Positions 2,927 through 8,467 are shown, counted from the first letter of the stretch. The stretch is 64,000 nucleotides of DNA from a phage (PZ151149.1), one strand, 5' to 3'. Program-made: numbers and translations. Notes: generated from the sequence alone by a model not told the origin.

Positions 2927-3286
2927 TTAGTCACGGGAAGACAACCCAGCCATAAAACGGCTTAAAAGCGTGTCACGATAAGCAAAGCATAATTGCTTAT
3001 CAGGGGCAGTATCACACAGGTTGCGTTTTGTTTTAGCGAAACTGGCAATACTAAGATCCCATGCTCGATTTTTTCGTTTTTCATCTCGGCCTTGTTTATA
3101 GGCTTCGTCGAGTTCAAGTGCGATAAAATCGCTACACATGTTATCATCATCACAGAAGGTTTTAATGATCTTTTTGTTGATCTCAAATCCTTTGTATTCG
3201 AACTTTGGATAAGGTCGCTCATTACTAGCAAGCGCACCAGCAGAGAACATCATAGCAATCATAGCAATTATTGTCAACTTTTTCAT
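2927..3286 (-). CDS. secreted/periplasmic small protein (signal peptide)
   Basis: N-terminal MKKLTIIAMIAMMFSAGALA signal peptide, 4 Cys in mature part. Confidence 0.6.
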   Translation of the reverse strand: MKKLTIIAMIAMMFSAGALASNERPYPKFEYKGFEINKKIIKTFCDDDNMCSDFIALELDEAYKQGRDEKRKNRAWDLSIASFAKTKRNLCDTAPDKQLCFAYRDTLLSRFMAGLSSRD

Positions 3287-3293
3287 ACATTCC

Positions 3294-3884
3294 TCAATAG
3301 CGTTTAGTTTTAAGAATGCCTTTACTCTTTAGATGGTTAGCTTTTTTTAGTACGTCATCAGCATAACCTAAACCGGCTTTATAGTTCCACCCTGCATTGT
3401 AAGAAGCTAGCGCGAGTCGGATATTACCGTTTCGAACATCCAGCCAGTATGCTAACTCATCCATCGCGTAGAATGCAGAAACCTCGCGATTCATGATAAA
3501 GTTGATAGTCTGGCGATCACTCATTTTAACACCGCGCTTTGCATTTTTCGCTTTCACCGTTTTAAGGTAATTTTGAAATAATCCATAAGCATGATGATTT
3601 TTCTTTGGTGATAAGTTTGCACCCGCGCTTGATTCTTGCCATGCGATACCCGCCAAGATGTGACCTAAACCCTTTCCGTTATAGCGAATATTCGGATGGT
3701 CCTTTTTCAACTTACCGCTTTTCTCGAATTGCTCGCCGTATTGATAGGCGAAATGTAAATTATCTAGTTGGTGTGCTGTAAAGTTGTCTATCGGCGCTTT
3801 TTTGATCGGTGCGCTAGTCGATGCGTGTGTAGCACCAACGGCTAGTGACAGACTCAATACTATCGCTTTTAGAACTTTTAACAT
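3294..3884 (-). CDS. exported lytic transglycosylase (SLT-domain protein)
   Basis: Signal peptide plus SLT motifs AGIAWQESS, GLFQ, YNAGWNY. Confidence 0.75.
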   Translation of the reverse strand: MLKVLKAIVLSLSLAVGATHASTSAPIKKAPIDNFTAHQLDNLHFAYQYGEQFEKSGKLKKDHPNIRYNGKGLGHILAGIAWQESSAGANLSPKKNHHAYGLFQNYLKTVKAKNAKRGVKMSDRQTINFIMNREVSAFYAMDELAYWLDVRNGNIRLALASYNAGWNYKAGLGYADDVLKKANHLKSKGILKTKRY

Positions 3885-5250: not shown

Positions 5251-5949
5251 CTAACCACGGGTATAGTGTTCCAGAACAACGGTCAGATGAATATATTCTA
5301 ATAAATCTTTCCAAAAGTCAACATCTGGTTCTTCCGGCATACCGTTTTTCTTTGCCTCTTCACGCGCGAGTTTAACACGCTCGTAGAGATCTTTCAATTC
5401 TTCCCGCACATTATCAAAGGTTCTTTCTCCTAACTTACACGCTAAAATAGAAGAACGTCGCGCGAGAGGGAATTGTAGATCACCAGTCTGATAGATTTCA
5501 AGTAGCTGATAACCAACACGCAGAGCATGAGAAAGGTCTTTCCAGTTACTGAAATACTTTTCAGATTTGGCTACCTGCTTTTTGAGATAACCGGAGCACC
5601 CCCACATACCAACATGATAGAATTTATCGCGATGTGTTCGGATGTATTCCCATTCTCTGGAGGATTCAATCAACATGTTACTAGGCGCGTGCACCATGTC
5701 AATAGCGCCGATATCACCTTTACATGCCAGATTGATAAACCGTTTTAGACTGAACATATTAACGTCAATATCGTCTTTGGTGTTCTTGATACCTTGACCG
5801 CTAGTGCTTTGGTCATAGTGTTCTTTCATCGATCCTAAGATAATTTCTTTCGCAGTCGGAACAAAGATACCACGATAATCTTTATCGGAATTTTCAGTAT
5901 CAAGGCCGTATAAGTGAGATCCGAAGACCATTTTAACCATTGTATGCAT
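5251..5949 (-). CDS. Pol-beta-superfamily nucleotidyltransferase
   Basis: N-terminal FGSHLYGLDTENSDKDYRG (GS...DxD nucleotidyltransferase signature) followed by helical C-terminal region. Confidence 0.6.
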   Translation of the reverse strand: MHTMVKMVFGSHLYGLDTENSDKDYRGIFVPTAKEIILGSMKEHYDQSTSGQGIKNTKDDIDVNMFSLKRFINLACKGDIGAIDMVHAPSNMLIESSREWEYIRTHRDKFYHVGMWGCSGYLKKQVAKSEKYFSNWKDLSHALRVGYQLLEIYQTGDLQFPLARRSSILACKLGERTFDNVREELKDLYERVKLAREEAKKNGMPEEPDVDFWKDLLEYIHLTVVLEHYTRG

Positions 5950-5962
5950 AATTAAACCCTCA

Positions 5963-6493
5963 TTAGTATTTTACGTTACGTCGAACGCCTTTTCGAATCT
6001 GACAAATAGCAGACGGTGAAACATTATATTTTCTTGCAAGTTCTACACCCTTCATATGGGGAGAAGATAAAATCTCTTCCACTTGGTCGTCGGTAAGTTT
6101 TGCGTTTCCGTGGTTCTCTCCCCAATTGTTGTTTAATCCTTCTTCCTTCGCATGAACAAGATTTCGGGTATCTGTCGTCCATTCAAGATTATAAAGGTCA
6201 TAGTTTTGTTTGTTTCCATCCTTATGATTAACTACACGGTAGTTATTTGGATTCGGAATAAACGCAACCGCCATAGCTTTATGCATGTTCACGGTTTTTC
6301 TAAATCCATCCGGCTTATAACATACTGTAAATTTAGAATAACCAGTTTTACCATAAACACTAATATAATTTCCGGTCTCTGTATTTCTAACCCTACCATG
6401 AGAGCTAATCTCAAATTGAGTGTAGGGCAACAGCGCATCAATCACTTTCCATTCTTCGACAGGATGGTCATCACAATATCTTTTAATCATCAT
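5963..6493 (-). CDS. HNH homing endonuclease (NUMOD4-like N-term, HNH, C-terminal HTH)
   Basis: EISSHGRVRN, VNHKDGNKQNYDLYNLEW, and C-terminal helix-turn-helix LARKYNVSPSAICQIRKG. Confidence 0.8.
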   Translation of the reverse strand: MMIKRYCDDHPVEEWKVIDALLPYTQFEISSHGRVRNTETGNYISVYGKTGYSKFTVCYKPDGFRKTVNMHKAMAVAFIPNPNNYRVVNHKDGNKQNYDLYNLEWTTDTRNLVHAKEEGLNNNWGENHGNAKLTDDQVEEILSSPHMKGVELARKYNVSPSAICQIRKGVRRNVKY

Positions 6494-6509
6494 ATCACCT
6501 CATAAAAAT

Positions 6510-6540
6510 AAAGCCAACCCTTTCGGATTGGCTTAAAAAA
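6510..6540 (-). terminator. intrinsic terminator
   Basis: AGCCAACCC-TTTCGG-ATTGGCT hairpin with T-rich tail on minus strand, directly after 6541 stop. Confidence 0.5.
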
Positions 6541-6957
6541 TTACATTGCTTCCGTAAAGGTGCGCGAAATAACGTCACGTTGTTGGTCTGGAGTCAGACT
6601 ATTGAATCTTACGGCATATCCGCTAACGCGAATGGTTAGTTGCGGATACTTATCAGGATTAGCAACCGCATCAAGAAGAAGATCGCGACTCATCACATTG
6701 ATATTCGCGTGCTGACCACCTTCGACAACCGGAGCGCCATTATCTACAACAACCGGACGGAAGCTAGTTGTGTGCAGTGCCAGCGAATCGACGTCTTCGG
6801 CGGTGATCACATGTTCTTCTGCGAAAGTTTTACTAACAATTACTTTAGCGCCGATCAGTGCTTTCGGTTCGGATACCAGAATCATAGGCGCGAAGTGTCC
6901 ACCGATAATAGTACCTTTATGCTCACCTTTCATGATTTGAATTGCTTTAAATTCCAT
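6541..6957 (-). CDS. grcA: autonomous glycyl radical cofactor (GrcA/YfiD-like; T4 Y06I-type)
   Basis: C-terminus [11 protein letters not shown]...[33 protein letters not shown] is near-identical to the GrcA glycyl-radical motif. Confidence 0.85.
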
Positions 6958-7092
6958 AATTCACCTCTTATAGATCAGGACGTTCGTCATTAACTTTTCC
7001 AACCAAAACCCCATAGAGCCTATCAGGTTGGACTTTACGATTCTTTTTAATTGTAGCACGAAATCGACGAGCTACGCTATCTTTATTTTTCA

Positions 7093-7578
7093 TCAGTTGA
7101 TACCTAAGCCAATGAAAATAGGTTGGTCTTCTACATTACCCATCCCAACACTAAGTCGATTTACTTCTAAAAACTGCAATACGCTGTCAGTAAATCCTCG
7201 CATGGTAGTATCTAGGATAAAGATTGTTTTGTCAAGACTACGACCTCGCCAAGTGATCGGATTCAGGAAAGTTCGGATCGAAGTGCAATCTACATTTGAA
7301 ATGTTGATATTTTCACCGCGACCGCGTTCTCGGATCGTTTTGGCATGTTCCCGCGTTGTTGAAACGATAAAAACACTATATCCTTTTCGCGTATAATGGT
7401 CATATAACTTGATTGTAGCGTCTGTATGCCCTGTTTGACGGCCTAAATTGATTGAGACGATGGAATCTAGGTCATCAGCAAAATTACGTCGCTTACGGCG
7501 TTCTATGATGCCATCTACGGCAGATACACACGCAGCATAAATCAAATCTTTACTTTCTAATTTTACATCAATATTCAT
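7093..7578 (-). CDS. hypothetical protein
   Basis: 161 aa ORF, no confident motif (GRQTGHT is not a canonical P-loop). Confidence 0.55.
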   Translation of the reverse strand: MNIDVKLESKDLIYAACVSAVDGIIERRKRRNFADDLDSIVSINLGRQTGHTDATIKLYDHYTRKGYSVFIVSTTREHAKTIRERGRGENINISNVDCTSIRTFLNPITWRGRSLDKTIFILDTTMRGFTDSVLQFLEVNRLSVGMGNVEDQPIFIGLGIN

Positions 7579-7640
7579 GGTAAAGTCTCCAGTGAACGGG
7601 GAGAGATCCTTAGATTGTCTCCCCGTTGATGGTTAATATT

Positions 7641-8030
7641 TTATTTTGGATCTGGGTATTTGCTGTGTGGCAATTGTAGATGAGGACCATCTTTGAAACT
7701 AGACCAATCCCCACCCCATTCAACAGGAACACCCAATTCTCGACCAGCTTGTTTAAATGCATCAGCGATCATGCGGTAATATTTCATGTTCCATGTATCC
7801 TTATCTTTAGGATACGCTACAACGTCAACCGCGAAACCGTGAAGATGACGAGATTTCATAGTCTTAGATTTACCTTCCGCAACATATTTCTTTTGCGTTT
7901 CTAGACTACGCACACCTTCCGTAATACCAAAATCGACCGGAGTCAGTTCTAATGCACGATGAACGACTTTTACCAGGTCTGGATGTACACCAACAAGCCG
8001 ATCTTTGCTTCTTTGAGATAATTTAAACAT
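7641..8030 (-). CDS. endolysin, L-alanyl-D-glutamate peptidase (peptidase M15 family)
   Basis: SRHLHGFAVDV and WGGDW...GPHLQL zinc-peptidase motifs; 129 aa. Confidence 0.85.
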   Translation of the reverse strand: MFKLSQRSKDRLVGVHPDLVKVVHRALELTPVDFGITEGVRSLETQKKYVAEGKSKTMKSRHLHGFAVDVVAYPKDKDTWNMKYYRMIADAFKQAGRELGVPVEWGGDWSSFKDGPHLQLPHSKYPDPK

Positions 8031-8058: not shown

Positions 8059-8250
8059 TTAGATTCCTGTGATCCTGCATAGAGTTCTTGTATTAGCACC
8101 AATCAGGATCGCATTAACGGCAACCATTCCCCAATCAACCCACGGATTATTATAAATGCTAAATCCGTTTGCTAGGCCAAATACAAGCATTCCGGTACAC
8201 ATACTCAGAGCAATAATCAACATCACGGTAAAACCAAATGCAAATCTCAT
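8059..8250 (-). CDS. small membrane protein
   Basis: 63 aa, two hydrophobic helices. Confidence 0.45.
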   Translation of the reverse strand: MRFAFGFTVMLIIALSMCTGMLVFGLANGFSIYNNPWVDWGMVAVNAILIGANTRTLCRITGI

Positions 8251-8251
8251 A

Positions 8252-8467
8252 TTATTTTCCTTTTCTCTGTTTACGTTTATAAAAGTAATACATTACCTCA
8301 TCGCGTCCGGTGATCCAACATGCTAGGGCGGTAAACAGGTTTACAATTCCCAACACACCTACGGATGCGGCGCTGTCAACAGACATAGGAACAGTAAAGG
8401 CCATAACTAACATAGCAACGCCACAAATGACATTAAGCACCATTATAATAAGACCGAAGAAAACCAT
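8252..8467 (-). CDS. small membrane protein
   Basis: Hydrophobic ORF; start moved to internal Met to abut upstream gene. Confidence 0.45.
   Translation of the reverse strand: MVFFGLIIMVLNVICGVAMLVMAFTVPMSVDSAASVGVLGIVNLFTALACWITGRDEVMYYFYKRKQRKGK

Follow-up and report, generated by a model that had tools for sequence, protein, structure and literature searches.

A phage vs.6 gene encoding a probable pyruvate formate-lyase spare part, with a mosaic glycyl radical module beside a homing endonuclease slot

Organization of the vs.6 Locus

The window, as the whole 64,000-nucleotide stretch of phage DNA analysed here (PZ151149.1) is called, carries an open reading frame that is the orthologue of T4 vs.6, the gene for Y06I, in an RB49/JSE-like Krischvirus (Table 1). 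The DNA around this reading frame is 97.8% identical to that of Escherichia phage vB_EcoM_011D4, JSE, and Whisky (Krischvirus, RB49 group), the encoded protein is 98.6% identical to its 011D4 counterpart, and the reading frame is annotated as Vs.6 in phages 011D4, JSE, and RB49. Neither the gene nor its class of function is new: near-identical proteins are in GenBank, vs.6 is annotated in hundreds of phage genomes, and it was listed in 2006 as conserved in six of six T4-like genomes, with a match to the Gly_radical family (PMC1524935).

Table 1. Features of the vs.6 locus in the window.
Feature	Coordinates	Strand	Details and basis
nrdC.11 (RlaP-type nucleotidyltransferase), downstream neighbour	5251..5949	(-)	Pfam PF10127
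Free-standing HNH/NUMOD4 homing endonuclease gene	5963..6493	(-)	176 aa; PHROG 59, 1.5e-36
Intrinsic terminator of vs.6	6501..6534	(-)	10-bp stem, GAAA loop, U-run; terminator scan
vs.6 CDS, phage GrcA/Y06I-type autonomous glycyl radical protein	6541..6957	(-)	138 aa; ATG at 6955-6957, stop at 6541-6543 (ORF list)
PFL-type glycyl radical module, codons 78-138 (VEGGQH...RTFTEAM)	6544..6726	(-)	hypervariable mosaic segment in the genus
GGA codon of Gly113, predicted radical-bearing glycine	6619..6621	(-)	read directly from the sequence
Phage-type N-terminal half, codons 1-77, with Krischvirus-specific insertion	6727..6957	(-)	alignment
Shine-Dalgarno AAGAGGTGA of vs.6	6961..6969	(-)	3 nt upstream of the ATG
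41-aa ORF, upstream of vs.6 in one unit	6968-7093	(-)	PHROG 13848
vs.8, upstream of the 41-aa ORF and vs.6 in one unit	7093-7578	(-)	PHROG 1488

The product of vs.6 is a small stand-alone protein with no large-enzyme body, and the reading frame lies between a strong ribosome binding site and a terminator of its own. The stop codon of the upstream 41-aa reading frame lies 10 nt before the vs.6 ATG, and the terminator, which begins 6 nt past the vs.6 stop (RNA fold of -16.1 kcal/mol, z = -4.05), is kept in all alleles across the eight phages compared. A promoter scan returned sigma-70-like sites at or below the shuffled expectation, and none was assigned to vs.6. The order vs.8, 41-aa ORF, vs.6 parallels the vs.8-vs.7-vs.6 order of T4, and annotations place vs.6 after vs.8 within the early gene cluster in the window, 011D4, RB49, JSE, and T4 alike. 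Downstream of vs.6 the two arrangements differ, as T4 has vs.5 where the window has the homing endonuclease gene and nrdC.11.

Vs.6 as a Phage-Type Glycyl Radical Protein

An initial annotation, made from the DNA alone, had taken this reading frame for a phage-encoded autonomous glycyl radical cofactor resembling GrcA (YfiD), and the database matches bear this out. The protein matches Pfam Gly_radical PF01228 (E 4.9e-15; 56.4 bits against a cut-off of 22.2 bits), the PDB entries of YfiD/GrcA (6owr, E 1.7e-28) and PflB (1h16, E 9e-26), and PHROG 1209 over its full length (E 1.2e-47), with residues 3-138 falling on positions 1-121 of the 121-position profile. The C-terminal sequence pattern quoted in that annotation fits the end of the reading frame exactly, far beyond chance, and its proposed relatives were recovered by BLASTP of the whole protein, at 57% over 104 aa for GrcA and 51% over 137 aa for T4 Vs.6. 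The best NCBIfam matches are GrcA and formate C-acetyltransferase; glycyl radical enzymes other than pyruvate formate-lyase (PFL) match only weakly, at about 1e-7 to 1e-11, and none of the 33 PDB matches is a class III ribonucleotide reductase (NrdD) chain.

The C-terminal domain carries the R-V-S-G-Y-A-V motif with the radical glycine, Gly113, which is the counterpart of PflB G734 and YfiD G102. Conservation of this motif on alignment, which the annotation had put forward as a check, is found throughout, Gly113 and the flanking motif residues being invariant in 70 of 70 aligned homologues. Its description of the last 60 residues as almost identical to GrcA is, conversely, overstated: 47 of the last 61 residues (77%) are identical to E. 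coli GrcA and 46 (75%) to PflB, and near-identity to GrcA holds only for the last ~36 (32/36). E. coli GrcA shares the same module and motif, with 59 of 104 residues identical in the alignable part, but the first ~36 residues of the window protein cannot be aligned to it by HMM and the synonymous sites are saturated. Over 61 residues the module is 75% identical to the C-terminal domain of PflB (residues ~698-759; 1h16, 2pfl), and it has the residues of PflB, not those of GrcA, at M89, L95, N100, and the C-terminal methionine. In contrast to PflB, Vs.6 is without the ~700-residue catalytic barrel and could act only by complementing a PflB body.

Against the NCBIfam GrcA equivalog model, the window protein scores 125.4 bits, below the 170-bit cut-off that E. 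coli GrcA (234 bits) passes. The validated T4 Y06I fails it as well, at 151 bits, so that the cut-off separates bacterial from phage members of the family and is uninformative on function.

An alignment of 15 sequences divides Vs.6 into two halves, a PFL-type C-terminal half and an N-terminal half with a phage signature. This signature, Q-I-x-x-G-x-H-K-G-T-I ... I-V-S-K-T-F-x-E, is common to T4, Klebsiella, Kosakonia, Yersinia, and jumbo Salmonella phages and absent from bacterial GrcA in the same alignment. A BLAST search with the N-terminal 77 residues alone returned Krischvirus-like proteins first, followed by Vs.6 from other phages (T4, 41%, E 3e-6). Named bacterial GrcA proteins were absent from the matches, and the one named match outside phages was a metagenome bin that resembles a phage contig. 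T4 Y06I is likewise a small stand-alone orthologue with the signature, a PFL-type module with a radical glycine, and a location after vs.8 in the early region; the window protein, 51% identical to it overall, is 18 residues longer because of insertions in the N-terminal half. The AlphaFold model of the window protein has a mean pLDDT of 78 and renders the N-terminal half as beta strands with moderate confidence, and a fold search of this half gave no significant PDB match. The C-terminal 54-60 residues of the model overlay the YfiD structure 6owr and the C-terminal domain of PFL in 2pfl (rmsd 3.2 A over 54 residues), and the fold predicted for the last ~60 residues matches that of E. coli GrcA. 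Homologues of vs.6 were found by tblastn in ~1,580 phage records, among T4-like phages of enterobacteria and Aeromonas, T5-like phages, and jumbo phages.

Mosaicism of the vs.6 3' End in Krischvirus

Between nrdC.11 and vs.8, the window is 93-100% identical to seven relatives outside positions ~6541-6750, and within these positions identity drops to 53-78% against RB49, phiS, and FL20. The divergence is one-sided, since nrdC.11 remains 95-100% identical in all relatives up to the boundary of the endonuclease gene. Among Krischvirus alleles of vs.6, the N-terminal half is 98-99% identical in nucleotide sequence, and dS, at 0.02-0.10 over the first 66 codons, reaches 1.8-2.6 over the last 56. 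A jump of this kind between the two halves of one gene argues for old functional lineages joined by recombination and not for fast evolution in place, and phages kvi and G2248 are simple recombinants of the window-type and RB49-type vs.6. Judged from these alignments, the 3' ~200 nt of vs.6 are a hypervariable mosaic island in Krischvirus. We conclude from the sequence comparisons that the vs.6 3' end and the adjoining endonuclease slot form an apparent recombination hot spot, of which the window module would be one circulating allele. No description of the mosaic structure of the vs.6 module in Krischvirus was found in the literature searched.

The vs.6 3' end beside its homing endonuclease slot offers a clean natural case of module-level mosaicism under strong purifying selection, and a possible test bed both for intronless homing and for the sequence tolerance of the PFL radical domain. 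In metagenomic Krischvirus-like Vs.6 alleles (P0003-P0020; L098-L101, L106), variation reaches even into the otherwise invariant radical motif, and several of these alleles are visibly mosaic, for example with an RB49-type first half and an FL20-type second half. For the PFL radical domain, they are a potential mutational scan made by nature.

The Homing Endonuclease Slot Downstream of vs.6

The endonuclease encoded next to vs.6 matches PHROG 59, 'HNH endonuclease', and in Pfam it stays slightly short of threshold for both HNH_3 (23.7 bits, cut-off 24.8) and NUMOD4 (20.6 bits, cut-off 23.4). Alignment places its gene as a precise insertion between the vs.6 terminator and nrdC.11, with its own ribosome binding site, GAGGTGA, just past the terminator. 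Five of 59 related GenBank records (011D4, Whisky, phiS, and two records of JSE) carry this window-type gene; nine others carry, in the same slot, an unrelated HNH gene encoding 197 aa with ~25% protein identity to it, and in the rest the slot is empty. SegF, SegG, and MobE are free-standing homing endonucleases of T4-like phages that act by intronless homing. The window locus resembles such systems in having an HNH/NUMOD4 reading frame in an intergenic slot, a presence/absence polymorphism among near-identical genomes, and a divergent flanking tract that appears to be co-inherited. T4 MobD, which belongs to another Pfam HNH family, is not homologous to the window endonuclease.

The arrangement raises the possibility that intronless homing of the adjacent HNH endonuclease brought in the 3' module of the window as an allele immune to cleavage. 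Under this model, vs.6 would be cut by the endonuclease within its 3' part in any genome that does not have the endonuclease gene, and repair from the donor would bring in that gene along with the adjoining stretch of vs.6. Free-standing homing endonucleases are known to contribute to the mosaicism of T4-related genomes (PMC2993671), and several features of the Krischvirus loci are in keeping with the model. Three types of endonuclease gene occupy the one slot, 30-50 nt past the vs.6 terminator, and all 14 of the endonuclease-carrying GenBank records have vs.6 3' ends that are not of the RB49 type. The nine records with the second-type endonuclease are exactly the nine with an FL20-type vs.6 3' end. 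The one-sidedness of the divergence noted above, with nrdC.11 at 95-100%, fits as well. Among metagenomic Krischvirus-like loci, RB49-type 3' ends are absent from the five with an endonuclease gene in the slot (those encoding P0001, P0003, P0005, P0011, and P0016), and the locus with the RB49-type allele, which encodes P0002, has no endonuclease gene.

The tract shared by the second-type carriers is anchored on the endonuclease side, where the last ~100 nt of vs.6 are always 95-100% shared, even on a backbone of 75-80% identity. Its 5' start varies, from nt ~205 in FL20 to ~241, ~281, and ~321 in the metagenomic loci L100, L099, and L101, respectively. A fixed endonuclease-side tract with a variable 5' end is, as read from these alignments, a co-conversion signature for the second type. 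For the window-type endonuclease, the flanking vs.6 pattern is compatible with co-conversion and fits plain recombination too.

Several observations weigh against the homing model. Phages FL15 and KFS-EC have the window-type allele without an endonuclease gene, a non-RB49 allele likewise occurs without one in metagenomic locus L106, and the 1b endonuclease subtype is found beside three different vs.6 alleles. The recombinants kvi and G2248 are simple ones, and a conserved terminator sits between the divergent tract and the endonuclease gene. Much of the pattern is explained by recombination between co-infecting phages with linkage, and physical linkage alone could produce the association of endonuclease and vs.6 allele. 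Import of the window module by homing is a possibility of rather low probability, and so is cleavage inside vs.6 by the window endonuclease.

Predicted Role of Vs.6 in Pyruvate Formate-Lyase Repair

Knappe and co-workers showed that YfiD and T4 Y06I acquire a glycyl radical from the PFL-activating enzyme and rescue PFL cleaved by O2 (Wagner et al. 2001, as summarised in PMC8683613), and their activation and rescue of PFL are also covered by a further review (PMC13450708). The statement in the initial annotation that a T4 homologue, Y06I, serves as a PFL spare part is in agreement with this literature, in which Y06I has been known in that role since 2001. An E. coli strain with the PflB variant G734A no longer produces formate once GrcA is lost (PMC12338860).

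By analogy with the biochemistry of YfiD and T4 Y06I, the window Vs.6 is likely to be such a spare part as well. In a facultative anaerobe infected under low or fluctuating oxygen, host PflB would be cleaved by O2 at its radical glycine, and PflA, the host PFL-activating enzyme, would place the radical on Gly113 of phage Vs.6. The activated module would then dock in the damaged PflB and replace the lost C-terminal domain, restoring the conversion of pyruvate to acetyl-CoA and formate and keeping up the ATP supply while the phage shuts off host expression. In an infected cell unable to make PflB or GrcA of its own, Vs.6 may in this way keep acetyl-CoA and ATP production going. A PFL-repair role is proposed because Gly113 and the motif are kept, the module is of the PFL type, and its dN/dS is ~0.1, even between saturated alleles, which indicates purifying selection. 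The same selection, acting on a module that must fit host PflB and the PFL-activating enzyme, may explain its high amino acid identity to the host proteins.

Taken together, the most probable reading, to which we assign a probability of about 0.75, is that the window gene is a vs.6 orthologue that would function in PFL repair and has resided long in phages, with an old, shuffled module allele and not a recent capture from the host. Certain points count against it. Its function is transferred by analogy from T4 Y06I, and the identity between the two proteins is 51% over the full length and 74% within the module; the score of 125 bits lies below the 170-bit equivalog cut-off, which validated T4 Y06I (151 bits) also misses; unusual substitutions are present in the module (QHANIN, LLLDA, ...EAM); and the window protein has a different N-terminal half, the part that in YfiD assists in installing the radical.

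A role other than PFL repair, such as a spare part for TdcE or for a phage NrdD, or a decoy of the PFL-activating enzyme that would re-route fermentation, appears improbable. A function in nucleotide metabolism was proposed early from the Gly_radical match (PMC1524935), and spare parts for further glycyl radical enzymes are deemed conceivable in reviews (PMC8683613; PMC13450708); the N-terminus of the window Vs.6 is moreover phage-type, unlike that of YfiD, and the motif itself is altered in some Krischvirus-like alleles. The module is nevertheless PFL-type, with 75% identity to PflB 699-759 and GrcA and formate C-acetyltransferase as its top NCBIfam models, and T4 Y06I has been shown to reconstitute PFL (PMC8683613). 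TdcE is a close paralogue of PflB, so that TdcE rescue would amount to the identical mechanism. An NrdD spare part was rejected on sequence type, no NrdD chain having been matched in the PDB.

Origin of the Glycyl Radical Module

The high identity of the C-terminal module to its enterobacterial counterpart had been taken in the initial annotation as a sign of recent acquisition from a host. The motif is indeed identical to that of the host at the amino acid level, and capture of this kind has demonstrably happened in T4 and its relatives. When T4 vs.6 (7558-7920 of the T4 locus) is aligned with E. coli K-12 grcA (8067-8450 of its locus), the last ~175 nt, from the EGGQH codons to TFTE, are 97% identical in nucleotide sequence with a dS of 0.07, and the grcA-like part has sharp junctions, one lying at the EGGQH codons and the other at the final two codons. 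The codon adaptation index (CAI) of the T4 module is 0.55, which is E. coli-like, against 0.26 in the N-terminal part of the same gene, which is AT-rich with a GC3 of 0.19. In 629 phage records, the module is 95-99% identical to E. coli grcA at the nucleotide level. By these alignments, T4 vs.6 is a chimera, and T4 and its close relatives (Tequatrovirus) have a host-derived 3' module, of which no description was found in the literature searched. T4 thus serves as a positive control of recent transfer, and the host-capture idea is correct for Tequatrovirus and wrong for the window phage.

For the window gene, recent capture of vs.6 or of its C-terminal module from an enterobacterial grcA is very improbable. 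Over the last 61 codons, the window gene and E. coli grcA are 69% identical in nucleotide sequence (dS ~1.9), and for pflB the figures are 70% and ~2.9. Against 5,426 complete E. coli genomes, blastn aligned only the last 185 nt, at ~71%, with pflB as the best match, and E. coli was rejected as the donor on this ground. A scan for the module across 185,579 bacterial species, with one genome per species, found at most 83% amino acid identity, and the best nucleotide identity among the 79 closest loci was 73%, so that the other bacteria sampled were rejected as donors too. Among phages outside Krischvirus, none has a module above ~75% nucleotide identity to that of the window. The module's CAI (E. 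coli pflB reference) is 0.24, within the range of 0.21-0.32 of its phage neighbours and far from the 0.55 of T4; the codon-usage comparison therefore aligns the window module with the phage and not with E. coli.

The N-terminal 77 residues match phage Vs.6 proteins only, and the vs.8-vs.6 synteny held in common with T4, along with the conservation of the gene in six of six T4-like genomes, is a further argument against recent acquisition. For the 56-residue module, whose shortness and saturation preclude a resolved tree, nearest-neighbour tables were used, and in these the closest nucleotide neighbours of the window module are other Krischvirus alleles. The bacterial grcA set used for comparison with Klebsiella phage modules did not include that of K. 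pneumoniae. With synonymous divergence saturated from every bacterial gene tested, the claim of recent acquisition did not hold up: for the sampled bacteria, recent capture is effectively refuted, and the window copy is, on the evidence of sequence divergence, an old phage allele, 68% identical in nucleotide sequence to the T4 module, which is itself a recent copy of E. coli grcA (97%). Amino acid near-identity to a host protein is accordingly no evidence of recent transfer, and the synonymous sites point to the window copy being ancient.

Both the Krischvirus mosaicism and the host-derived 3' module of T4 are variations on well-known themes of phage mosaicism. A broader scheme, in which the vs.6 module is recurrently replaced, by conversion from host grcA in T4 and ~630 relatives and by endonuclease-driven import in Krischvirus, with the window allele being cleavage-immune, is speculative and somewhat unlikely as a whole. 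That the window gene is a decaying, non-functional remnant is scarcely credible, for although vs.6 was never scored essential in T4 genetics (PMC1524935), the reading frame is intact with a ribosome binding site and a terminator, has homologues in 1,580 phage records, and combines fully invariant catalytic-motif residues with a dN/dS of ~0.1.

Related Loci and Database Records

A second insertion site lies on the other side of the unit. In JSE, Whisky, and phiS, the gap between vs.8 and the endolysin gene (7579-7640 in the window) holds an extra 576-nt reading frame, and JK32 and G2248 have a reading frame of the same length just upstream of vs.8, which the annotation of G2248 calls an HNH endonuclease and that of JK32 an AP2/ERF-type protein; it is missing from the window, 011D4, and RB49. 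Together with the downstream slot, this site suggests that the vs.8-vs.6 unit is flanked by two homing endonuclease slots.

In T5-like phages, the GrcA-like gene lies in the tRNA region, a region rich in homing endonuclease genes. In Salmonella phage phC11 (GrcA-like gene at 2006-2374 of the locus), an HNH endonuclease gene (3247-3753), with 41.6% protein identity to that of the window, is found two genes downstream, and the association of the two genes in T5-like phages is a loose one. Jumbo enterobacterial phages with contigs of ~350 kb, namely Yersinia phage fHe-Yen9-03 and Salmonella phage SE_PL (P0031, P0113), encode a phage-type Vs.6, so that the family reaches beyond T4-like and T5-like phages.

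A few records carry labels at odds with their content. A 43-kb contig filed as 'MAG: Bacilli bacterium' (P0026) encodes a protein with the N-terminal signature of phage Vs.6, unlike bacterial GrcA, and is probably phage sequence binned into a bacterial metagenome-assembled genome. The 6.3-kb record OR848450.1 ('Listeria phage LM 4-14-1') has a T5-like GrcA gene and an HNH gene typical of enterobacterial phages and is probably mislabelled or a contaminant, and AGRM01000002.1, filed among phage records, is a 691-kb bacterial contig of Salmonella enterica.
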